From Eledone cirrhosa (taxonomy: Eukaryota): a stretch of 64,000 nt of DNA. The position numbers and the translations under genes were made by a program. The DNA is taken from NCBI GenBank assembly GCA_964016885.1, contig OZ024755.1:27032001-27096000 (forward strand), given 5' to 3'. Positions 20,358 through 62,091 of the stretch are shown piece by piece (the first letter of the stretch is position 1; each line of letters starts with the position of its first letter). The notes under the pieces were generated by a model, which was given only the letters and a program-made list of their open reading frames with translations, did not search any database and was not told where the DNA came from.

Positions 20358-21936
20358 GAAAGGCTGCTCTTGTTCTTGGGCATGAATTAATCTGTTGCCC
20401 AATTTTATACTAACACCTGACTTGCAGGTTGACTTTAGCAGAGTTCAATCTATTGCAAACATTCGAGCAAGATTTCTAGTCTGTCGATACCTGCCTTCCT
20501 TCCAACCCACTAGTCTTGGAGGCTCTGAAAAAAATCAGGAGCATTTCCCTTCCTTCTGTGATGGAACTTATGGAAAATATATACTGAACTAATTTCTCTC
20601 CAGCATTTGCAATCTCTCATTTTATGCCCAAATCTTGTCACCACATAACACCTCTTACACATGCTTCATTCGGCCTATTTTTCTTTTGTCTTTTTTGCCA
20701 ACACAAGTAACATCTTGAACTTCATAAATTACCTTTTTACTCTAGTTGTTATACTTTCACTACTGTCATTTCCAGTATTAATTATGTTACCCCAGTCAGG
20801 AACTATCTGAACAGTCCTTGAACTATATTTGGATATGCATGTATGTAGAATATTTTCTTTCAATATTTATGTCAATGATAAGGAGACAAATCATTGTTGC
20901 GTAGGTCAATTATGATTTAGCCTTTGTAAGCGTATATAAGATTTTCTTCCCTCTCCTTTAGTCTTTGATCCTTGGCAGTACATGTTAGTAGTGTCTACTT
21001 TACTGTACTTGTAGTCTTTCATCTTTCATTATTAATCATGTCTTCTTAAATGATGGTTGAAATGATCAGCAGAAAAGGTGACTTAGATTCTCCTTTATAA
21101 GTAATCATTTGAACTTGGAGGTTTCAAATGCATTTAAACTGTCATATGTGACAGTTTAAATAGATAGAAGACGAGCTTTCTCTCTCCCTACTTGAAACTT
21201 TTAAGTGATGATTAGAAATATCATTTGTAAATAACTGGAAGTAGATTAAAGTAGATATCTGTCAGCTAGGTTAAGCTGGAAAATCGACCACAGTGTCCTA
21301 GAGCTGAAACCTTAAAACATCAAATGCTGTGATTATCATTGAAAAAAAACACTTGGGCAGTACTTGCCTCAGTTTGTCTGATTAAATGTTCCCATTTCTA
21401 TTTCAGTAGAGTGGGAAAACACTGTGCTGTAAAATCCAGTAACTCTAACAAAACTAATCCTAATAAAGCAGCATGCAAAATAGATATATATTTTTAAATA
21501 TAAACCATCGGATCTCATGGTTGAATATTTTCCTCTTATAAATACACATATATATAGATAGATAAAATGTTACTAGACAAGATTAGTAAGACAATTCATC
21601 TTAGTACTTTTGCATCTGCAAAGGTTTAAGCTTGACCATGATGCATTTTATCTTATAATATATATATATCATCATCATCACCGTTTTACGTCCATTCTTC
21701 CACACTAGCATGGGTTAGACGAGTTGTCCTGTTTTTGGCAATGCCAGGTCGGGTGACCATGTCTTGTTTATTTATATATATATATATATATCCATCCAAA
21801 GTCTGCTTTAAACATGGCTTAGTCCTTAACTCTGGGGGTATTTAATGGAAGTAATGTTAAATTTTTCAGTGGCAGTAGTTGCCATGTATATATGTATATG
21901 TATATATGTATATATGTATATATATATGTATATATT

Positions 21937-24900
21937 GGGTGGGAAATGACAATGGGCTGGGTGGAGCAGAAAAGTGGACAGATAAGATAATAGACGTAAA
22001 TAGAGTGAACGACAGAATAATTAAAATAAGACTTGTCCTCAATAGAACTACTGTGACAGTAATATCTGCGTATGCACCACAATCCGAACTGCCTGGCGTT
22101 ATAAAAGACAGATTCTATGAGACATTGATGCTCACTACCTCCCAAATAACCGACAGTGACTACATAGTTATCGCTGGCGACCTAAATGGTCACATTGGAC
22201 AACATTTTGACGGCTATGACGGAATGCATGGAGGCTGTGGGTTTGGTACTAGAAATGAGGAAGGCCCCAGAATCCTGGAATTCTGTGAGGCAAATAACCT
22301 AACTATCTGTAACACTAACTTCAAAAAACGAGACAATCACTTGATCACCTATAGATCAGGGGAACACACCTGCCAGGTAGATTATATCCTTACCAGAAGA
22401 CGTGACAGAGTGTCTGTTGTAAACACTAAATCCCTCCCCCATGAAGAATGCACCTCTCAACATAGACTCATAATTAGCGACCTCATAGTCAGGACGAGAC
22501 GTACTCGACAACAGAAGAGGACTATCCTCAGGTGAAAAATATGGAAGCTAAAGGACCCCACAGCCAGTAATAAATTTAAAAGCATATTACTTGATGCTTT
22601 TGATAGTAAGGAAGAGCAATTAGAGTCGTACAATATAGAGGAACAGTGGGAATTCCTGAAAGCTAACCTGCTGAAGGCGACAGATGAAATCTGTGGCTGG
22701 AGCAGACCTATAGGCAGGAGGAGAGTAACTTGGTGGTGGAACAGTAAGGTGGAGGGGTCAATCAAGGCCAAAAAGCAAGTTTGGAAAGCATAGCGGGATG
22801 GGGGAAGTAGAGAAGACTATCAAGTGGCCAGGAGGGAAGCTAGGAGACAAGTGTACTTCGCAAGAAGGGAAGCAGAGGAAAGAAAGTTCAAGCATGTTCT
22901 ACAACGCGAGGACCAAAAACGTGAGGTGTTCAGGATTGCTAGGCAATGTGTCAAGGAAAACCGTGATATTGTTGGGGAGAAGTGTGTCCTTAATGATGAT
23001 GGTGTACTTGCCATCACTGACGCTGATAAGGAGGTAGCTTGGAAGTGTCACTACAAAAGGCTACTAAATGAGGAGAATAATTGGGAGAAAGACAGTCTCC
23101 CCCACATCGATCCAATAGAGGGACCAGCAGTGCAAGTTGAAGGTAGTATAATAAGTAAGGTAATCAAAGACATGAAGACAGGCAAGGCAGCTGGGCCTTC
23201 GGAAATAGTTGCTGAAATGCTGAAAGCATCTGGAACGGTGGGACACACTATGGTCACCCGGATAGTAAACCAAGTCATACAGAATGGGGTCGTTCCGAAG
23301 GACTGGCATAGCAGCATCATTATTAACTGCTACAAGGGTAAAGGAGATGCCCTAGATAGGAGAAACTATAGAGGCATTAAATTAATTGACCAGGTCATGA
23401 AGGTCACAGAAAAAGTAATAGCGCAACTAATCAGAGAGAGAATTGATCTAGATGAAATGCAGTTCGGGTTTGTGTCAGGTAAAAGTACTACAGATGCTTT
23501 TTTCATTGTACGACAACTACAGGAGAAGTACCTAGCTAAAAGTAAACCCCTATACTTAGCTTTTGTTGACTTGGAGAAAGCCTTTGACAGAGTACCCCGC
23601 TCGATTATCTGGTGGGCCCTTAGAAAACCAGGTGATGATGAATGGCTTGTGAGAGCTATACAAGCCATCTATAAAGAAACTGTCAGTAAGGTTATAATTA
23701 ACAACGAATATAGTGAAGAGTTTAGCGTAAAAGTTGGTGTTCATCAGGGCTCCGTCCTTAGCTCCCTATATTTATTATTGACCTTAAGGCTATAACAGAG
23801 GAGTTCAAGACCGGCTGCCCATGGGAACTTCTATATGTAGATGATCTAACGCTCATAGCTGAATCAATGGCTGAACTAGAGAAGAAATTCCAAACATGGA
23901 AGCATGGCCTAGAATCAAAAGGCCTTAAAATTAACCTGCCTAAGACTAAAGTTCTAGTTTGTAGGAAGGAAAATAGGGCACTGGTCCCATCTGGGAAATG
24001 GCCATGCTCAGTGTGTAGGAAAGGAGTAAGCAGAAACTCCATTCTATGTCCCAAATGCAAAGTATGGGTGCATAAAAGATGTAGTGGGATCACAGGTAAG
24101 CTAACTAAGAATATAGATTTTATATGTGGCCAGTGCTCATGTGCAATAAGTAGCAGCAAGTGCCCACAGAATACTACCTCATTCCATTGCACAGATGGTT
24201 CTATGGAAATAGTGGACACCTTCCGTTACCTGGGTGACAAAGTCAGCAGTGGTGGAGGGTGCTCTGAAAGTACAGTAGCTAGAGTCAGAACGGGATGGAA
24301 AAAGTTCAGAGAGCTTATACCACTATTAGCCGCTAAAGGGTTCTCTCTAAAAATGAAAGGTAGGCTGTATGATGCCTGCATACGAACAGCAATGTTACAT
24401 GGCAGTGAGACTTGGGCATTGTGTGCAGAGGATATACGCAGACTGGAGAGGAACGAAGCTTGCATGCTCCGTTGGATGTGTAATAGTAATATACGTGAAC
24501 GGCAAAGCATAAATGAACTAAGGGAGAAATTAGGAATAAGAGGAATCAGATGTTGTTTACTCGAGAGAAGACTACGTTGGTACGGTCACATGATGCGCAT
24601 GAAAGACGACAGTTGTATAAAAAAGCGCAGGGCGATAAAAATAGAAGGTAGCCATGGAGTAGGCAGACCCAGAAAAACCTGGGACGACTTGATAAATTCC
24701 GACCTCACACACTTACACCTCTCCAAGACAATGTCACTGGACCGAGATCTTTGGCGCTACACAGTAATACAGAAGACCCGCCTTGCCTAAGTACAAAACG
24801 AAACCTACAGTCAGTAGGCACCGCTAACAAAAATACACCCCGTCCCACTACCCCCACCCCATCCACACCACACCTTTCGATGTAAAGTTATGTTGGTACC

Positions 24901-38933: not shown

Positions 38934-39267
38934 CAGTGTATCCCTGTCATTCACGGTCCCGGTTATTTGTGGAATTTTCCTTAGACTAAACTAATAATTA
39001 TTTGTGGAAACCACCTCATGTTTGCAGAATCATAAATATCTTCCGCGTTTTTTTAATGACTTTTTTCCTGGCAATATATATATTTTTTAAACTAAATTAT
39101 TAACAACAATATACTGTATTTGGCAGCCTATTGGACACCCCTTCACATGAGACGCTCCCTCTTTTTTTATACTATTTTATGTTATATTTTGACGTTTATA
39201 GGCATTTTTATGGACCACGTCCAATATTTTCAGTTTTTCACTCTTCACGAATACCGGGGGACTACTA
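38934..39267. mobile_element. pogo/Tigger-like MITE
   Basis: TA-CAGTGTATCCC ... CGGGGGACTACT-ATA; body homologous to 59650-59922. Confidence 0.65.
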
Positions 39268-39689
39268 TATATATATATATGTATATATGTATATATATAT
39301 ATATATCATCATCATCGTCGTTTAACATCCATTTTCCATGCTAGCATGGTTTAGACGGGTTGTCCCATTAGAGGCAAGTTGGGTCAGGTGATCGTGTCTT
39401 GCTCATATAGAACTGTTTCTAGCTTGGTTTCTATGCCTGGATGCCTTTCCTAACACCAACCACATTTACAGTGTGTGCTGGGTGCTTTTTATCATGACTT
39501 CAACACAACCACTTTACAGTGCGGGCTGGGTGCTTTTTGTAATGACACCCACATGACCACTTTACAGTGTGGGCTGAGTGCTTTTTGTCTTAAAACCTAT
39601 GTGACCCCTTTACAGTGTAGACTGGGGGGGGCTTTGGTGGGAAGGGTGAAATACTCATGTGAATGTGTGTGTTTTTTTAAAAATAATAT

Positions 39690-39765
39690 GTATAATTTGG
39701 CAACAGTACTTCCAATGTAAGAGCCACCACATTTTTTACATGTTATTTTGTGAACAACATAGGAC
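39690..39765 (-). mobile_element. Penelope-like GIY-YIG N-terminal fragment
   Basis: Minus strand encodes YVVHKITCKKCGGSYIGST, matching the VVYxIxCxxCxxxYIG pattern. Confidence 0.6.
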
Positions 39766-39779
39766 CTCAAGCACATATC

Positions 39780-40236
39780 CACATTACAGATGGGATTTCA
39801 CCAAGACTCAGGAATTCTAGACTGGTTGTTCATGGGAACTCTTATATGTTGATGATTTAGCCTTCATCATCAAAATGGTAAAAAAAGCTAGAGACATTTA
39901 AGACATGGAAGCAAAATCTGGAATTGAAAGGTTTCAGACATAGGTAAGACTAAAGTTTTAGTAAGTAGAAAAGAGGGTAAAACACTGCTACCATCTTGGA
40001 AATAGTTGTGTTCAACATACTGAAAGGAAGTTGGTAGGAATTATATAATGTGTACCCAGTTTAAACTGTGAACACACAAAAAAATGTAATGAAATCGCAA
40101 TTACACTGACAGAGGGTGGACTTTGTATTTGCCAAATGTACAGTAGTCAACTATAAGTAAACAATCTACCTATAATGCTCAGAAGGCTCACTAGAAGTAG
40201 TAAAAAGCTTTTGCTATCTAGGTGACCTCATTGGCA
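39780..40236 (+). mobile_element. Highly degenerate RTE RT fragment
   Basis: GCSWELLYVDDL and downstream sequence colinear with about 23790-24245. Confidence 0.75.
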
Positions 40237-40589
40237 TATTTCCTCTTTATTACTAACTCTAATATTTCAAATTAAATTTTGATTAAGTCTTTCTTTACTA
40301 TATTTTAAAACTAATCAAGAACTTGGAAATATTCATTTAGTAATGTAACTAGCTCTCTCATTATTAAGATGGTGTTTGGAGCAACACTTAACAAAGGTTC
40401 TTACATAACATTATGATAGAAGCTTTTTAGATAACTGTAAACACTCTAAAATAAAAAGCTTGATATCAGAAAACCAAGGGATTTCAGGCAACTTAGTATC
40501 AAATGAGTTAACTGTTCTAACTTCTCTCGTTTGTTCCTGTCCTTCCCCTAACATATATAAAAAGACTATATATGCATATATATTATATC

Positions 40590-40611
40590 TTTAATTTCTC
40601 TTATTTTGCAG
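40590..40611 (+). promoter_or_regulatory. Splice acceptor of the WDFY3 start-codon exon
   Basis: Pyrimidine tract TTTAATTTCTCTTATTTTGCAG; exon begins 40612 with 20 nt of 5' UTR. Confidence 0.8.
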
Positions 40612-40631
40612 CTGTTACCGGCTAAAAAAAA

Positions 40632-40829
40632 ATGAGTTTTATGCGGAAGCTAGTTAGCCCTCGGGCAACACCAGAGCCATCAACCTCTGCGGCAATCAGC
40701 TCACAGGATAATGCTCTTGGTTTGATGCATCTGAGGAAACTATTTGCGGAGTTCCGCCAGCCACAAGGAAATGTTACTCAGAAAGAACAGGAGGATAAAC
40801 TCTACAACATGTTACCTCTCTTCTGCAAG
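40632..40829 (+). CDS. WDFY3: WD repeat and FYVE domain-containing protein 3 (Alfy/blue cheese), first coding exon, 66 codons
   Basis: SQDNALGLMHLRKLFAEF..TQKEQEDKLYNMLPLF matches the WDFY3 N-terminus as I recall it (QDNALGLMHLRRLF..TQKEQEEKLYMMLPVF); canonical AAG|GTAAGT phase-0 donor at 40830. Confidence 0.93.
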
Positions 40830-41138
40830 GTAAGTTCACAACACTACATACTTAATGAACGGTGTGTGTGTGTAGCAAATTGAAAGTGTCTTTGGATCTT
40901 CATACAGAAAATTGTTCTAAAAGCGAGAAACTCAATCCAATGTTTGATCACTGGGGTTACAACTACACATTGTAAAACAATTGATTTGTAAAGAATTACA
41001 ACTACCAGAAAAGTAATTCTTATCACTATATATATATATATGGCATAGACATTACAATACAACAGGAGGAAACATAATAGTACCACTGATGATGTCACAG
41101 GTGTGTGATGAAAGAACTTTGATAGACTGTATATATAT

Positions 41139-41394
41139 ATAGTTATGTAATAAACAACATAAGGCAATTATTCAATTTACCAGTGGTTTCTTAAAAGCAA
41201 AAAATTTTGCTTTCAATCATCAGAATGAAAAAAAATCCTGGTGTATTTATTGATATTGGATTCTAAAAACCAATTTTTAGAATCCAATATCAATAAATAC
41301 ACCAGGATTCTGATGATTGAAAGCAAAATTTTTTGCTTTTAAGAAACCACTGATAAATGGAATAATTGCCTTATTTTGTTTATTACATAACTAT
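41139..41394. repeat. Long near-perfect inverted repeat (putative inverted Penelope terminal repeat)
   Basis: Arms 41139-41269 and 41274-41394, loop CCAA, 3 mismatches and one ~10-nt bulge. Confidence 0.95.
41174..41227 (-). ncRNA. Minimal hammerhead motif in left arm (mirror copy on + at 41306-41360)
   Basis: CATT-CTGATGA-TTGAAAGCAAAA tt TTTTGCTTTTAA-GAAA-CCACTGG-TA-AAT on the minus strand. Confidence 0.6.
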
Positions 41395-41456
41395 TAAGCT
41401 CTGTTACCTACATAGAGCACTCTTTTTTCCTGGACTTTTCCGACAGAATTACTTCA

Positions 41457-41525
<69 letters not shown>

Positions 41526-41526
41526 C

Positions 41527-44469
41527 TTGAGATGAATCAATAAGACAATAGAGATAGTTCGAGTTAGTAATTGAATAATTAAGCTTAGATTAGTTGTAGG
41601 CAGAAGACTACTGACAATCATCTCTGCCTATGCTCCCCAAGCAGGCCTAGGCAAAGAAGAGAAAGACTGCTTTTATGAGCAAATTTTTCAAACAACCGCA
41701 ATGACAGAGGACAGAGACATCGTTATACTAGCAAGGGACTTCAATGGTCATGTTGGACAGCTCCAGGATGGTTACACTGGTGTACATGGTTACAGCTGAA
41801 GAAATGAAGAAGGATTGAGACTTCTTGTATTTTGTGATGCAAGTACACTGACTATTTGCAACACTAACTTTCAGAAACCTACCAACCACCTAATAACCTA
41901 CAAATCAGGCGAGCATATAAGCCAGATTGACTTCTTACTAGTTAGGCACTGACTTTACTGACAGCACCTCTGAAGAAAAGTTTGCACTGTCCTCACAAGC
42001 CATTCCTCAACACCTAGTTTCCTTAGGGACCACCAGATGACAGATCGGGGTACTCTATCAAAGGCCTTCTCTAGGTAAACAAAGGCTAAGTATAGTGGCT
42101 TATTCTTCTCTAAGAATCTATCTTGTAATTGTCTCACCAAGAAGAGGGCATCTGTTGTACAAAACCAGGTACAAAACCAAACTGCATCTCATCTAGTTTG
42201 ACCCTTTCTCTAATTAGTTGTGCTAATATCCTTTCTGCTACTTTCATAACCTGATCCATCAGTTTTATACCTCTATAATTGCACCTCTCCAGAGCATCCC
42301 CTTTACCTTTGTAGCAATTTATGAGAATACTGCTGAATCGGTCTTTAGGTATGACACCACCATATATAGCCTGATTGATGATGCGTACAACCAGCTTAGT
42401 ACCTACGTCCCCTGATGCCGTCAGCATCTCAGCAACTATCCCCGACGGTCCAGCAGCCTTACCATTTTTCATTTCTTTAATCGCCTCTTGGACCCTATAT
42501 TCATCAATCTCAATAGCTGGTCCCTCTGTCGGATCTACTGAGGGTAATTTCTCTCTCTCCCATTCGTTCTCCACATTCATCAGTCTCTCATAATGACATT
42601 TCCAGGCCTCCTTTTTCTGATCATAATAATAATAATGAAAATATTGCATACAGTGCTCAGGTACACTACAACTCATCAAAAAGTGTATGTATAGTACATA
42701 GGGTAATGTATAAACGTCAGGAAAATGAACAGTGCATGAGTCATGATATACACATGTGTGCATGTGTATGGAAGGGGTACATCAGGTGTAGTTTTGGCGA
42801 ATTTTGGGAAGCATGAGGGTTTTAAAGGATGCAGTGTCTCAGCAGCTAACAACTGAAATCATTTGTGACACTAAGTACACCGGCATCATTCCAGACACAT
42901 CTATCTCCAACAACATCCTGATTTGCATTGACACACTGCCTTGCAATGTGGAACACCGCATGCCTTTGATCTTCCCATCGCAGAACATTGGCAAACCTCC
43001 TACTCTCAGCCTCCCTGCGTGCTAAGTACACCTGACGCCTAGCTTCTCTCTTAGCGGCTGTATATCCTTCCCTACTCCCACCCTTTTTCCAAGCCTTCCA
43101 TGCTAGTCTTTTGTCTCTAATGGCCTTATCTACTGTACTGTTCCACCACGAAGTCACCCTCTGTCTGGTTGGAGCTCTGCTCCAGCCACAAGTTTCATCA
43201 GTAGCCTGCAGTAAGTTGACATGTAAGAAATTCCAGTTATTATCTATGTCATATGTCTCTAAATCGTCTTCTTTTTCGTCATACACATCTTAAAGGGCTT
43301 TCCTAAATTTGTATTTTAGTGAAAAGTCTTTTAGCTTCCAGACCTTTCTTCTCCACACCTTCTTGTATGTCTCATTCCATCTCTTGCTTACTGAGATATC
43401 ATTAACGACTAACCTATGCTGTGGGGTACATTCTTCCCCAGGGTATGCCTTGGTATTTGACACCATCTACTTGCTGACGATCTGGTTCTTATAGCAGAAT
43501 CAGTAAAGGAGCTAGAGAATAAATTCTGGCTATGGAAACAGCAGTTGGAAGCAAGAGGACTGAGAGTGAACCTAGCTAAGACAAAAGTGTTGATGAGTAG
43601 AAAAGAGGACAAAACTCTGATTCCATCAGGGAAATGGCCATGTTCGATATGCAGAAAAGGAACTGGCATAAATTCTATAAAATGCACACAATGCAGATCT
43701 TGGGTACACAAGAGATGTAGTGAGATAGCAGGCAAACAAACAGGAAGGGAGAAATACGTACGCAGTAGATGTACAGGGAAATTAGACAGTAGAAGTCGCA
43801 TTGATAGACACATTTTTCAAATGCAGGTGGTTGCTATAGAAGTGGTGGATAGCTTCCGGTACCTAGGAGATCAGATTAGCATGGGAGGGGGGTGTTCCGA
43901 GGCCATAGTATCTAGAATAAGGACGAGTTGGAAGAAGTTTAGGGAGCTGCTTCCTCTGCTGACGAAGAAGGGTTTCTCCCTGCGTACGAAAGGCCGGTTG
44001 TATGATGCCTGTGTGAGGAGCACGATGCTGCAAGGTAGTGAGACATGGGCAGCAACTGCAGAGGATATTCGATGGCTGGAGAGAAATGAGGCAAGCATGC
44101 TCTGTTGGATGTGCAATGTGAATGTGAGTGAACGACCCAGCATGAATGTGTTGAGAGAGAAACAAACTGTGTCTGAGAGAGGGATAGAATGTAGTGTGCG
44201 AGAGAGGAGACTGCGGTGGTATGGACATGTGATGCGCATGGAGGATAACCGATGGGTGAAGAAGTGCCAGGAAATGCCAGTTGAAGGAAGATGTGGTAGA
44301 GGTAGACCACGAAAAACACGAAGTGGTGAGAACAGATCTCAGATCGCTGAAGCTCACGGTGGAGATGACGAAGGACCGTGACAAGTGGAGAGATGCTGTA
44401 CTGAATAAGACCCGTCCTACCCTTGCAAGCAGGGAAAAGCGGACGTAAAATGATGATGATGATGATGAT
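41527..44469 (+). mobile_element. RTE-clade LINE 2, rearranged (+/-/+)
   Basis: APE remnant + (41527-41950), inverted APE-RT segment (41955-43470), RT C-terminus + from ADDL (43473) to (GAT)n tail. Confidence 0.93.
42623..42857 (-). mobile_element. CR1-type LINE 3' fragment nested in RTE LINE 2
   Basis: Homologous to 58063-58297; (TTA)n tail; ATCAT duplicated at flanks; interrupts SVTND|QKKEAW. Confidence 0.85.
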
Positions 44470-51700: not shown

Positions 51701-52653
51701 CTTGCTGGTTGTTTAAGTGAAGTGAAAAGACTGCAACTGGGAATCAAAATGAAGTAACCAACTCATCTTGTTAAGTCACTTCCTTCTACTCTACAGAAAA
51801 CAGGAAAGGAAAGCAATCAATTCTCAAATCGGACCAAGGAAACAATGTTTCCATTAGACTTTCCAGTGCTGATACTATCTGCTGGTTGCAAGTCTAGTGG
51901 TGAGGATAATTGCAATGATTATGATGGAGATAATGGCGATGGTGATAATGGTTTCTAATTTTAGCACAAGGCCAACAATTTAATGGAAGGGAAAACTGAT
52001 TAAATTGACTCCGGTTCATGATTGGTTCATTATTTACTGACCCCCAGAAGGATGAAAAGCAGAGTAGACTTTGCGTGGATATGATGGAGATAATAATTAT
52101 GGCAATGATGGAAGTAGTGATGGTTGTAATGATGATGATGCTAACAATCGGTTTAACTTTCAAAACACACCACACCATGCAGAATATCTTTCAGTTTTGG
52201 GGAGCCACATTTAAAAACAAAAAAAAAAATGTCCTTGTTCTGCTCCCATTAACATCATTAGAAACATTATCCCTCCCCCTCAACCACCACTACCGCCACT
52301 ACTACCACCACTGCTGCTGCTGTTCCTGACATCACATGCAACAAGTGAAATCACCCACTCACAACAGAACATCTCCTCCTCCCACGCCTCAAACAAACAA
52401 ACAAATAATAAAGAAAAAGAAAGCAAAATGGAAACTAAGTCAAATAAAAGAATGTATGTATAACATGCAAAGGCTTAACCTGTTCCAACAGATATTGATC
52501 AGAGCAGTTTGTATTGAATAGCAGTGTAACTGTGAAACTGTAAACTGTTTACTACACAAAACAATTAAATTGGAGTAATTGCTGTAGTATGTAGCAACTG
52601 ATGGTCGGGGTAAAATGTAATGCATGGATTCTTGGAGACTAATTTGTGGTTAA

Positions 52654-53086
52654 CCCTTCAGCATTTACATTACTCCATATTTACTGTTATCTCCATCATA
52701 TCCCCGCAAGGTCTACTCAGCCTTTCATCTTTCTCGGGGTCAGTAAATAATGTAACGGTCATGAACTGGAGTTGATTTAATCAATTTTCCCTGCCAGTAA
52801 ATTGCTGGCCTTGTGCCAACATTAAAAACTATTAACACCATCACCATCACCATTATGATCATTGCAATTATCAACATCACTATCAAAATCCTCATTAACA
52901 TGATGTAACACGTAAAGGCTTTATTTCACAAAATTTTCTCACATAATATCGAATCTATAAGATTTCAATATTATTTATTTTGAGAACAATACCTAAACAT
53001 TAGTATGAGTGGCCGGTTACAGCCGGTTTGAACAGAAAGAGGTGAGAGAATTCTGGCCGGATATGGCTGGTTTAAATGCTAAAGGA
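52654..53086. mobile_element. piggyBac-type MITE P1 interrupted by a SINE fragment
   Basis: P1 ends with TTAA; Meta-like SINE piece at about 52700-52830. Confidence 0.75.
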
Positions 53087-56170: not shown

Positions 56171-56263
56171 TATTTATCGATAAAATAAAGTACCAGTAAT
56201 GAACTGGGTAATTGCTGGCCTTGTGCCTAAAGTAGAAACATATTTATATATACATACATATAT

Positions 56264-56610
56264 GGAGGCACATGGCTTAGTGGTTAGAGCATTGGCCTTG
56301 CAATCGAAAGGTTGTGAGTTCAATTCTCAGACTGGGTGATGTGTTGTTTCCTTGAGCAAGACACTTTATTTCACATTGCTCCAGTTTACTCAGCTGTAGA
56401 AATGAGATGACAGGGACTGGGGTCCCTATCATTCCACTGCAAAGTGGTCGTGGAGGTGCCCACGGCAAAAAAAAGCATCCAGCACTCACTGTAAATGAGG
56501 TTGGTGTTAGGAAGGGCATCCAGCTGTAGAAATCAAGCCAGAATCAGTTCCCGTCCGACCCTTGCAAGCAGGGAAAAAGCGGACGTAAAATGAAATGATG
56601 ATGATGATGA
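56264..56610 (+). mobile_element. SINE family B
   Basis: Colinear with 12547-12877; (GAT)n tail. Confidence 0.9.
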
Positions 56611-57178
56611 TATAAATGTATGTACATGCACATCCGCGTTAGTTTGTTGAAAAAAAATCATAGTATTATAAAAGGCAGTGAAACTAAATCTAGGGTTAAA
56701 ATTAGCCTCCAGACTTTAGTTATTTGTCAACAGCAGGGTCTGGAGAATATAGCAGTGAAACAGATGAAGTGCATAATATAGCACATACAGTACTGGTTGG
56801 GTCACATTTTAAATGCTCCAATTAAGGTCGAAACAGCAGCAGCGTCAATTAAGACTATCATGTGGCTACTGACTTAAATACAACAATAACAACATTGGAT
56901 ACTGTAGTCTTGCCTGACATAAATAATAAACAGAACCGTCATGGTTGGAATGTCTTTCATCGTAGGTCTGTTTGATCAGGGCCAACTTGGGACTAAACAA
57001 CTATAACAACAATGGTTGAACAAGACCATTTATAAATAGTTATTTTTCAGATTGAGGTTATTCTGTCTGTCTGTATATATATATATTGTTATATATAATA
57101 TATATATTGTTTTATATAAAATATATATATATATATATACTGCCTCTCTGTTTTGTTCCCGTTCAGTTTTTCACTATC

Positions 57179-57236
<58 letters not shown>

Positions 57237-57766
57237 GAATCACTAAATACATAAGAATGGTAGACAGGAAATAGTACCCTCATCTTTCCACCACCTGTTT
57301 TCGTTTTTTTTTTTTTTAGGTTTATACAGGAAACAGGTGATATCATTTAAGACAAAAATGGGGACAAAAAGGGATAGTTTATTTTAGTACCAAAAAAACA
57401 TCCCCAAACTTACCAAAATATTTGGTGAGTTGGTAATTATTTTGTGAGTTGGTAATTATTTTGACTCTGGTGGAGACAAAGAATATAATATACATTTCAT
57501 ACACCCCACTCCCTACCAAATAACCCATACTGCATATATAAATATACACACATGTAGACAATTTTTTTTTTAATATAATTCTTTACATGTAGAAACACAT
57601 ACACATATACATTCACACACACGCATATATATTTGTATATACACACACAGGAAAATAGGATGTTAAAATGACAATGGTGATGATGATGATGATACACACA
57701 CACAGGGAAATTAGATGATAAAACGACAATGATGATGATGATGATGATATATATATATATATATAT

Positions 57767-57947
57767 ATATGAAAAAATTCAGGACTCCAACAGTTGAGCT
57801 CCGGCCATTTCGACAACTAGATCTGAAATGAGTTCAGATCTAGTTGTTGAAACAGCCGAGCTCAGCCGTTGGGGTCCTGAATCTTTTCATATTATCCAGT
57901 ACTCTGGTAGGTTATGGTCTAGCTGGTTTTTACCACACCCTATCTGA
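57767..57947. mobile_element. Fold-back element in (TA)n, same family as 1146-1284
   Basis: About 60-bp imperfect inverted arms 57767-57892 plus a one-sided extension. Confidence 0.6.
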
Positions 57948-57949
57948 TA

Positions 57950-58445
57950 TATGAAATTATTGTGTACAGTGCTCAGGTGCACTACAACTCATCAAAGGTG
58001 CATGTATAGTACATAGAATAATGTACAAGTGTCAGGAAAATGAACAGGGTATGAGTCATGATATAATAATAATAACAATGAAATATTGTGTACAGTGCCC
58101 AGGTGCACCACAACTCATCAAAAAGTGCATGTACAGTACATAGGGCAATGCACAAACATCAGGAAAATGAACAGTGCACGGGTCATGATACACACATGTG
58201 TGCATGTGTATGGAAGGGGTACATCAGGTGTAGTTTTGGCGTATTTCGGGAAGCATGAGTGTCTTAACGGATGCAGTGTCTCGGCAGCTAACAACTGATG
58301 CAGGCAGTTTGTTCCATGCTTTAGCAACTCTGAGCGGGAAAAAATGTCTACGAAAGTCATGGGAGCTGTGCTGTTTTCTGATTTTGTAGGCATGTCCACG
58401 TGTGTTAGACACATGGAGATAAAAAAGGTGCTCAGGGTTGCAATT
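57950..58445 (-). mobile_element. CR1-type LINE 3' end with partially duplicated tail
   Basis: ORF 58224-58412 TRGHAYKI..HFFPLRVAKAWNKLP is the typical CR1 C-terminus; 57950-58062 repeats the UTR. Confidence 0.88.
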
Positions 58446-58583
58446 GGCGATATCAGGATATTACCAGTTTTAAACTAGTAAGACCATTATTCAGCAGAGT
58501 GATATTAGAGAGAGTCAGGGCCTGATAGCTGAGATATATATATATACTATATATAATGGCATAAGTAGCAATGACTGCTACAT

Positions 58584-58799
58584 CAGGCATGTCAAACAGG
58601 CTGCCTGCAGGCCGCATGCATCCCTTTACAAGCACACCTGCAGCCCACACACACATTTTTACAGTGCGAGTATGTTTTATCTTTCTAATATAAAATGAAA
58701 AAAATTAGTTGTAATGTGCGCAATTAGTTGTGTGTGGCCCTCAGACAACACATATGTGACCCATGTGGTCCTCGGGCGACCCTCAGTTTGACATGCCTG
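58584..58799. mobile_element. hAT-type MITE, single-unit form
   Basis: Perfect 14-bp TIR CAGGCATGTCAAAC; TSD TGCTACAT/TGCTATAT. Confidence 0.9.
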
Positions 58800-59289
58800 T
58801 GCTATATGTTGCTTGCTGAGTGGTGTTGAAAGCAAGTGTTTGTGTCATGGTGATAGTCTTGAATCTTACATAAATACACCCATGTGGCAAGTGAACAAAC
58901 AAACAAAAAGAAGAGCACTCAATACATAGTATTTATTTTGGCATGTCTGTAGTGAATGAGTTACATGGTTATTAGACATACAGGTGTGCATGACTCTGCT
59001 TTAGGTTTATATGTAGATGCACACACACACATGCACACACATGCACACACATGCACACACACACACACATCATCATCATCGATTAACGTCTATCTTCCAC
59101 GCTAGCATGGGTTAAACGGGAGTTGTCCCACTTGAGGAAAGATTGGTCGGGTGACCGTGTCTCGCTCGTATAGGACTATCTGGCAGGTTATCTACGGCTG
59201 GATGCCCTTCCTAACACCAACCACATTTACAGTGTGGACTGGGAACCTTTTACCGTGTATATAAAAAAATATATATGTTGGGAGTGCAG

Positions 59290-59589
59290 AAGAACAATCA
59301 CACAAACTCTTTCAAGGACCGGAGCAAGAGACACTCTACTAGGCCGGCGGACCTGATATGGGACTTGAAGGACACCGGCACCCCGTATGATCTCAACTGG
59401 TGTATCATTCAACGTCCCAGTGCATATTCGGCCGGCGAGAGGAAGTGCAGGCTGTTCCTGTCCGAGGCCATGGAGATAGTCAGATTAAAGGATGGCACAG
59501 TCAACCTGAAATTGAAGATTATCATGACATGTAGACACCAGCGAAGGTGCACACTCTCTGCATGGCTACCTCCGGATGGCCCCAACTAG
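59290..59589 (+). mobile_element. Penelope-like element, GIY-YIG endonuclease C-terminal half
   Basis: NHTNSFK..HST..IWDLKD..W.II..Y..KCRL.LSE..CRH pattern in ORF 59275-59589. Confidence 0.75.
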
Positions 59590-59649
59590 TCGGGGTGGCA
59601 GCGCGGGTCCATGGAATCTGACACCATACCTTGATGACATATTTAAATC

Positions 59650-59922
59650 ATGGAATTTTCCTTAGAACCTAACTAATAATTGTTCATGGCAACCCACTGC
59701 ATATTCACAGAATCGTAAATATCTTCCGCGCTTTTTTCATGGGAATATAAATTTTTTTAACGCTAAATTATTAATAACAATATACTGTATTTGCCGACCT
59801 ATATCTTACATGATGTTTAGTCGTTTATAGGCATTTTTATGGACCACAACCAATATTCGTGGTTTTTCACTGTTCGCGGGTGCTCTAGGAACATAACCCC
59901 CACAAGTACCGGGGAACAACTG
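59650..59922. mobile_element. pogo/Tigger-like MITE, partial
   Basis: Homologous to 38934-39267; right end CGGGGAACAACTG-TA. Confidence 0.65.
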
Positions 59923-59930
59923 TATATATA

Positions 59931-60796
59931 TCTATATATATATAAAACAGAGAATGTCTGTCTGTCCGTTTTACTAAAACTCAAGAACCACCCAACCGAT
60001 ATTTTTCAAACTTTACACATGTAATACTTATGGTCATGTGAGTGTTTTGAGCAAAAAATATTTCAAATTTTCAATGCCCTAGGGACCGCATTAGGTGAAA
60101 AACTGCATATTTTAGGCTTTAAAGGCTTTTTTGAGGCATAACGGAACAATAATCCAGGCGATTTCTTCAAAATTTGCATTACTTATGTCGTTTAGAGTTT
60201 TGAACAAAAAAGATTTTCTCATCTTTTGCCCCAGGGACCGCATTAGGCAAAAAACCGATTTTTTAAAAAAGCATTTTGGTTGCGTTAGGGCCTGTAACTC
60301 GAGAAGTACCCAACCTATTTTTATTAAACTTTGCATATGCATTACTTATGTTTCACAAATTTTCTTGACTGAAAAAGATTTCAAATTTTTTACCCGGGAA
60401 CCGCATTGTTTAGCATTTTGGTTGCGTTAGGGCCTGTAACCTTAAAAGTATCCAACTAAATTCCTTTATGCTCTCCACCACTGCAGTCCCACATGCTTAC
60501 TGCTCTGTAACTATTGCTTTCATTGTACCATAGCACAACAAATACATGTTTGGTTTGTCGAATGCCTTTTTACTTAACCCTATCGTCTTGGCTTTCGTGG
60601 GTTGAACATTTTACTCTCAGGCACCCAATTAAGTTAAACCCCTGGTAATCTACAACAAATTTCTTTTATAAGCACAAAATGTAGACATGATCCCCAGGCC
60701 GAGGTATTGCGTACTTCTCTGTACTGTTTCAGAAAGGAGGGATAAACATGCCAATCTATGTTTAGAATCCCGAGCAACACCGGGCCATTCTGCTAG
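59931..60796 (+). mobile_element. Non-autonomous Helitron, complete
   Basis: A|TCTATATATATATAAAA start, GTCT repeats, subterminal CCCGAGCAACACCGGG hairpin, CTAG|T end. Confidence 0.88.
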
Positions 60797-60801
60797 TATA
60801 T

Positions 60802-61149
60802 ATCATCATCATCATCATCATCATCATTTTACGTCTGCTTTTCCCTGCTTGCAAGGGTGGGACGGGAACTGATTCTGGCTTGATTTCTACAGCTGGATGC
60901 CCTTCCTAACACCAACCTCATTTACAGTGAGTGCTGGGTGCTTTTTTGCCGTGGCACCTCCACGACCACTTTACAGTGGAATGATAGGGACCTCAGTCCC
61001 TATCATCTCATTTCTACAGCTGAGTAAACTGGAGCAATGTGAAATAAAGTGTCTTGCTCAAGGAAACAACACATCACCCGGTCTGAGTATTGAACTCACA
61101 ACCTTTCGATTGCAAGCCCAATGCTCTAACCACTAAGCCATGTGCCTCC
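60802..61149 (-). mobile_element. SINE family B
   Basis: Reverse complement of 56264-56610. Confidence 0.9.
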
Positions 61150-62091
61150 ATATATATGTGCCTCCATATATATATATATATTTATTTATATACGCACACA
61201 CACGTGTGTGTATGTGTTAAAGAATTATAAGAATGCAATCTTTAAGAAAGTTTCTGTTGGAGAGGGTGTAACGTTCAGAAAAGAATTATCAAAATATTTT
61301 TTCTTTTTTAGTTTAAAGAAGACATATGTATGGGGAAAATGTATATCTGCATATATATAGATAGATACACCCACATTTATACATACACACTCACAAATGC
61401 AGGCATACATATACGACATTAATGCAGACGTACATACTGACATATATATATACAAGCATTCATACTTACACATGTACAAATATACAAATAGATTGAATCA
61501 CACAGACATATACATGGACCCACAAGTACAATCATACACACACACACACAATATACATACACAGACACACAAACATTACTTAGACAGATACACCAAAGCG
61601 TGCACACACACACACTCGTATAGACATACAGATGCACACACACACACACATACACACAAAAACTAGCTTATGAATCTCATTTATTCATTATTTTTTGTAT
61701 AATGGAAGTTTAATCTAGAATTCTGCAAGTTGCATTTATTATGACATTAGTGAGATAGGCTTTGGAACTTTGTATATCTATATCAATATAAATGTGTATA
61801 CTTGGCCTTCTATATGTGTGTGTGTGTTTTGGATGCTTAATGCATTCAATCTATATTTATTTTTATATTAGAAACATCCAGTAGTTTAAACTGCTACTAA
61901 TGAAACAGATTAATGACTTTCTTGTACATTCCAGTGTATTTCATTAACATATTTCATGGTGAATTATGTCTTTAATGCTTAACATCCTGCACCACATGAA
62001 ACCGCATTAGCAAGACATTCTTGAATATTTAAGGGGGCCATGTGAAAATGATGTTAATGAGAACAAACCTTTGGTTTTACTTTATTACTTT

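Follow-up and report, generated by a model that had tools for sequence, protein, structure and literature searches.

In the account of Craig et al. (2021, PMC8557442), the Hydra clade of Penelope-like elements (PLEs) is defined by the RWK, DKT and CxCX5C motifs, insertion into (TA)n and the presence of hammerheads. Hydra-1_Obim from Octopus bimaculoides is listed in the same source among the Hydra PLEs. This was the only paper found in our search for literature joining Penelope-like elements, octopus and hammerheads, a search outside of which lay subscription papers, Repbase/Dfam and bioRxiv supplements, and the family characterized here may already be catalogued. PLE insertions are reported as units in which an inverted truncated copy lies head to head with a direct copy and a tail is present at one side only (PMC3846280, PMC8557442), while metazoan PLE hammerheads are reported to cleave poorly even as dimers (PMC4209133). 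Here, we describe a hairpin in the first coding intron of WDFY3 in Eledone cirrhosa which very probably represents two 5'-truncated copies of a Hydra-clade PLE 3' end, joined head to head in a (TA)n tract, likely now a decaying relic without function.

The hairpin was analyzed within a window of 64,000 nucleotides (contig OZ024755.1), taken from a 3.0-Gb genome rich in microsatellites. Its left arm (41139-41269, 131 nt, minus strand) is an inverted 5'-truncated PLE 3' end from which the tail is absent, and its right arm (41274-41394, 121 nt, plus strand) is the corresponding direct copy. The two meet in a 4-nt loop (41270-41273) which is the head-to-head junction. Alignment of the arms gave 3 mismatches and one 10-nt gap, in full agreement with the geometry put forward in an earlier sequence-only reading of this DNA. 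RNA folding of 41139-41394 likewise returned a long hairpin at -176.3 kcal/mol compared with -53.8 +/- 4.6 kcal/mol for shuffled sequences (z -26.6), with 0 of 100 shuffles equally stable. When computed in sequence context, right-arm bases pair with the left arm at a mean probability of 0.96, which supports the earlier proposal of long double-stranded RNA in the WDFY3 pre-mRNA. Five changes private to this copy relative to its family are distributed over both arms. The sequence-only reading captured the hairpin part of the element and overlooked a one-sided 65-nt tail on the plus strand (41395-41459), which is 92-98% identical to the tails of ORF-bearing copies, so that the whole insertion spans 41139-41459. 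Both ends are flanked by (TA)n target tracts as read from the sequence (41130-41141 on the left and 41460-41525 on the right), and no target-site duplication is readable within the tract of this insertion.

The 3' end of the first coding exon of WDFY3 (40612-40829, plus strand, ATG at 40632), which itself lies outside the element, is located 310 nt upstream of the hairpin, as had been claimed. Its identity was confirmed by a protein match of the encoded N-terminus to cuttlefish WDFY3 (87% identity, E 9.6e-25). The following exons begin ca. 64 kb further downstream on the same strand and the hairpin is therefore intronic. A contig from a related organism diverges from the window at both exon boundaries. 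The part of the WDFY3 intron contained in the window carries additional inverted repeats (e.g. 57767-57892, 51895-52882 and 56236-61183). With 12 inverted repeats of at least 80 nt and at least 80% identity in the window, the hairpin is not the sole possible source of double-stranded RNA in this intron. Other mobile element remnants are also present. The stretches 21879-24790 (plus strand) and 41.6-44.4 kb we take, by their visible motifs, to be LINE-type endonuclease and reverse transcriptase (RT) remnants. Positions 59215-59589 (plus strand) hold a relic of a different Hydra-like endonuclease C-terminus, showing 33% identity over 93 residues to the endonuclease of the parent element described below.

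Both arms contain CUGAUGA, a stem II, GAAA and the near-palindromic ACCAC-UG(G/A)U, as previously noted, with stem II consisting of 11 bp and a 4-nt loop rather than the 12 bp claimed before. The minus-strand copy (core 41223-41187, GUA site after 41178) is intact in its core and stem III and carries one stem I mismatch at 41174. In the plus-strand copy (core 41310-41346), the G to A change reported earlier could be placed at 41353, where it breaks stem III, and the 10-nt bulge has removed the 5' strand of stem I. In stem I, 3 of 8 positions remain, and in stem III 2 of 3 pairs, so that this copy cannot be considered intact. Predicted hammerhead folds follow the same trend with -11.7 kcal/mol for an intact sister copy, for which the hammerhead is also the minimum-energy structure, -6.4 kcal/mol for the minus copy and +0.2 kcal/mol for the plus copy. 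It had been suggested that AATGG downstream of the plus-copy site could pair with the stem I strand TTCATT of the left arm. We reject this rescue because TTCATT lies on the minus strand and AATGG on the plus strand, and the left arm is antisense in the pre-mRNA, making such pairing impossible in one transcript. The idea of a ribozyme locked under its own antisense holds in part. Masking itself is borne out by prediction, with the four stem II pairs tested in the hairpin context having probabilities of about 0, but stems I and III are already defective in the only hammerhead that the pair places on the WDFY3 strand, which renders the locking largely moot. Selection against cleavage could underlie these two lesions, although five changes cannot separate it from chance.

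The proposed covariance-model search yielded no hammerhead-family match. An Rfam scan of 39000-43500 gave 19 matches at E<=5, all under the gathering score, and the miRNA matches among them merely mirror the long stem. We consequently base the hammerhead call on motif anatomy and family variation. Across 72 distinct family motifs, the N7 position is occupied by any of the four bases and loops II and III are variable, while stem I position 5 is paired in all 72 via three pair types; the invariance of the core among these motifs was fixed by the search pattern and is not a result. At the family level, the CUGANGA/GAAA core, the three helices and an NUH site are those of a type I PLE hammerhead.

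Genome searches showed the hairpin to be multicopy. All 40 scored places among 2,355 candidates matched the 256-nt hairpin nearly over its full length (from query positions 1-6 to 251-256), and a 20-mer spanning hammerhead stem III had 4,169 exact genomic matches (control: 0). Using exact 14-nt anchors spaced 138-168 nt apart, at least 514 similar short hairpins were counted (control: 0), which is a lower bound as the copy in the window would itself escape the anchor criterion. Among the first 100 listed 20-mer matches, 52 were arranged head to head, forming 26 pairs, compared with a single tail-to-tail pair. Sixteen of the head-to-head pairs were less than 200 nt apart, and widely spaced ones flank RT and endonuclease fragments. 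At 17 hairpin loci, one end adjoins (TA)n and the other passes into the common tail. The tail, which was not part of the query, was found on one side only in 16 of these 17, the exception (L010) having a partial second tail. Counted genome-wide, the PLE end is followed by the tail in 2,093 cases and abuts (TA)n without it in 4,222. This is the insertion unit known from endonuclease-bearing (EN+) PLEs, in which a truncated copy in inverted orientation meets a direct one head to head and one end bears a tail. The earlier suggestion of a Penelope element inserted with an inverted repeat is hence supported, and the element can now be assigned to a family of the Hydra clade that has intact coding copies.

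To characterize the parent element, we analyzed sixteen stretches selected because they share long upstream sequence or contain widely spaced pairs, in several of which RT and endonuclease fragments lie between the arms, as well as 16 intact frames of 713-714 residues from 15 stretches chosen for that ORF length. When the genome was searched with the RT piece, 106 of 38,080 candidates were scored and yielded 107 matches, many of them within open frames of ca. 714 residues. All 16 intact RT/GIY-YIG frames examined are terminated by the end sequence seen in the window, always in the order ORF, internal hammerhead-bearing repeat and end sequence, a linkage that makes a chance neighbourhood unlikely. 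In 11 of the 16, the same end plus tail is also present ca. 105 nt upstream of the ORF as a pLTR, and in full-length copies the tail runs on into the 5' UTR ca. 105 nt ahead of the ORF. RWK, DKT and CxCX5C were found in every intact frame. YRDD at position 350 and YVGMT at 598 indicate, by motif and by likeness to Hydra-1_Obim, an RT followed by a C-terminal GIY-YIG endonuclease in a single ORF. Pfam searches with the RT piece, the endonuclease piece and the frame at window position 59215 returned neither an RT nor a GIY-YIG family. One fully scanned frame (L126) contains CxxC at 662 and CxH at 693 and is devoid of a CX2-5CxxC finger. A placement in Neptune or Naiad was rejected, given the lack of this finger and the presence of DKT instead of DKG or DKA. 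Together with insertion into (TA)n, as is typical of the Hydra clade, the motifs and the likeness to Hydra-1_Obim identify the parent as a Hydra-clade PLE. Owing to a long microsatellite-rich 3' region, its unit of ca. 4.3 kb exceeds the length of generally under 3 kb given for Hydra, a figure presented as a tendency and not as a criterion (PMC8557442). Against the ends of three intact copies, the left arm of the window copy shows 90.6% identity, and against those of four copies with broken ORFs the value is slightly higher (90.8-92.4%), which assigns the arm, by sequence identity, to a sister subfamily.

Two further features of the parent were observed. A second, internal hammerhead is located 1.3-1.5 kb upstream of the terminal one in all 16 intact copies (e.g. 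L132:6016-6106). Its core is kept and it ends in GUG, as do 10 of the 72 distinct motifs, all nine of those displayed being of the internal type. Cleavable hammerhead sites follow NUH, which GUG does not fit, and the internal hammerhead could serve as a non-cleaved dimer partner, so that only the terminal site would be cut. In addition, a pyrimidine tract followed by CAG and resembling a splice acceptor lies ca. 70 nt upstream of the terminal hammerhead in three copies (L022, L030 and L048). This suggests that the parent may have kept an intron as its microsatellite-rich 3' region, as is known for other PLEs.

Copies of nearly equal length and outer end, located in TA, would also be expected of a MITE or foldback DNA transposon, mobilized as one palindromic unit of constant build, in which hammerhead-like motifs are incidental. 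We regard this as highly improbable. Symmetric terminal inverted repeats around a fixed unit are not what is found: the ends are asymmetric with a one-sided tail, the sequence of the central junction varies from locus to locus, members of the 26 head-to-head pairs lie between 30 nt and 7.7 kb apart, and RT/GIY-YIG frames are closed by this very end. Further, mean arm divergence was 1.7% within a hairpin and 3.3% between hairpins in a sample of 31, selected by similarity and including one duplicated locus, as expected for a palindrome made at insertion. The varying junctions and the closer similarity of arms within than between loci suggest that the palindrome is likely formed anew at each insertion. 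An origin of the palindrome in assembly or fold-back sequencing is hardly credible at all. Inverted PLE structures are known to cause assembly trouble (PMC8557442) and none of the contigs listed from three DNA-like runs spans the whole hairpin. Against this stand the 3 substitutions and the 10-nt gap between the arms, the tail on one arm and the hundreds of loci with the same build and different junctions. Run contigs do cover the junction, mostly with the letters of the window, though they come from one sample, possibly the source itself, with other copies contributing. Of 24 sequencing runs screened, three contain the exon stretch in full and derive from a single sample, and the remaining 21 share 0.2 of its words and stem from other organisms.

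A different question is whether this copy, of the same PLE origin, was co-opted so that ADAR, attracted by its duplex, would edit the WDFY3 start exon more strongly, or so that splicing of this exon would change, as the sequence-only reading had proposed. The predicted duplex of ca. 120 bp contains 99 adenosines, and a long stable duplex near an exon, as known for editing inducers, is thus present by prediction. Editing inducers are described as sequence-independent and effective at 150-300 nt in mammalian reporters (PMC4053975), which makes the idea possible in principle, and intronic editing in cephalopods is reported to overlap repeats (PMC9068888). Compared with the exon, a contig of run X22, which stems from a related organism, shows 6 listed differences, four of which have G for A (40679, 40682, 40683 and 40703; one Thr to Ala change). 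These come from another organism without matching DNA and may reflect either editing or species differences. Run X22 has no cover over the hairpin family, which is not evidence of absence, and in the contigs of the four runs aligned here, family copies swamp the locus-specific signal over the hairpin, including any sign of editing or of an empty allele. The co-option reading is weakened by the hairpin being one among at least 514 alike and by the private decay mutations in its arms. The exon plus 70 nt folds no differently from shuffles (z -0.14), and its summed pairing probability with the hairpin was computed as 0.0003. Our literature search, with subscription papers outside its scope, found no paper joining WDFY3, RNA editing and cephalopods. 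We therefore find no support for an editing inducer or splicing modulator and consider co-option of this copy improbable. Equally doubtful is the broader scenario in which an active Hydra element seeded the genome with hundreds of 120-bp ADAR-docking hairpins, of which this one drives editing of the WDFY3 exon.

A truncated Hydra-clade insertion can be explained by the following sequence of events. The GIY-YIG endonuclease of the element would have nicked the TA tract, after which reverse transcription would have begun at two internal sites separated by 65 nt, so that the tail was included in one arm and is missing from the other. Both reverse transcripts would have ended ca. 45 nt upstream of the hammerhead. 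The two short products would then have been joined head to head, either through priming from both target strands or through fold-back self-priming. We infer this mechanism of two starts and joined arms as the simplest reading, with fold-back self-priming as the alternative. It draws on in vitro work in which AT-rich DNA was nicked and extended on both strands by a PLE protein and reverse transcription had two internal starts, with the tail corresponding to the sequence in between (PMC11167929). The hammerhead would belong to the RNA cycle of the parent and be passively carried in the stub. Once transcribed as part of the WDFY3 pre-mRNA, the arms are predicted to pair into ca. 120 bp of double-stranded RNA, which ADAR would edit as it does repeat duplexes elsewhere, with no selected consequence for the exon. 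Such passive editing of the duplex is likely considering that intronic editing in squid overlaps repeats (PMC9068888). As one of hundreds of such hairpins with a broken gene-strand hammerhead, the window copy is likely an inert and neutrally evolving relic.

Immediately upstream of the insertion lies the end piece of a different repeat family (41040-41128, plus strand), identified by genome matches (40 of 40 scored among 1,369 first-look candidates). Members of this family also end at (TA)n, frequently with a tail of their own, and the trailing (TA)n of the present piece is the target tract into which the PLE inserted. On the WDFY3 strand, the piece contains a third hammerhead-like core (41086-41113), which the hairpin does not include and hence does not mask. 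As its stem III comprises only 2 bp, this motif is probably inactive alone.

The hairpin itself is a standard PLE footprint of little significance as it stands. The family is of greater value as a resource, providing many intact near-identical coding copies alongside short hairpins, at least 514 in number, whose junctions are copy-specific, and could reveal how inverted PLE ends form and whether their duplexes raise editing of nearby exons. If the hairpin did induce WDFY3 editing, transposon activity would be linked to the origin of cephalopod editing sites, and retroelement stubs would create new lineage-specific sites.

As regards known systems, published work already covers inverted ends with a tail, insertion into (TA)n and a Hydra family of an octopus. 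As described for Hydra-1_Obim, the parent has a single ORF with RWK, DKT, the CxCX5C linker, CxxC and CxH, a (TA)n target and a 3' hammerhead whose ACC...GGT stem III has a 3-nt loop. With 24 of the first 44 residues matching by eye, the proteins are clearly related but distinct. The parent, a separate family, differs from that description in its unit length (ca. 4.3 kb versus 2,507 bp), its 11-bp stem II of unrelated sequence, its second internal hammerhead and its formation of pLTRs, Hydra-1_Obim being given as having 'no pLTR'. The hammerheads resemble those described by Cervera and De la Pena (2014, PMC4209133) in being type I with a long helix II and a short palindromic helix III and in their position within the terminal repeat, and depart from them in a longer helix II (11 bp), a helix III of 3 bp and a gene-strand motif that is broken, all as known from sequence. 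Like editing inducers such as Gabra-3 and inverted Alu repeats (PMC4053975), the locus presents a long stem-loop within an intron, a few hundred nt past an exon; the systems described there have an edited site and a structured exon target, while the present one is known from a predicted duplex. Metazoan non-LTR retrozymes, as described in bioRxiv 10.64898/2026.07.22.740005, are likewise short, non-coding, PLE-related and equipped with a type I hammerhead, but consist of head-to-tail tandem units, whereas the window copy is a head-to-head truncation of a coding element and thus not a retrozyme. The insertion further resembles EN+ PLE units (Arkhipova et al. 2013, PMC3846280; Craig et al. 2021; Frangieh et al. 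2024, PMC11167929), which share the arrangement and the tail at one end. The tail measures 65 nt here compared with 30-40 nt in the published units, and, unlike in those, both copies are only ca. 125 nt long and the entire insertion is a hairpin.
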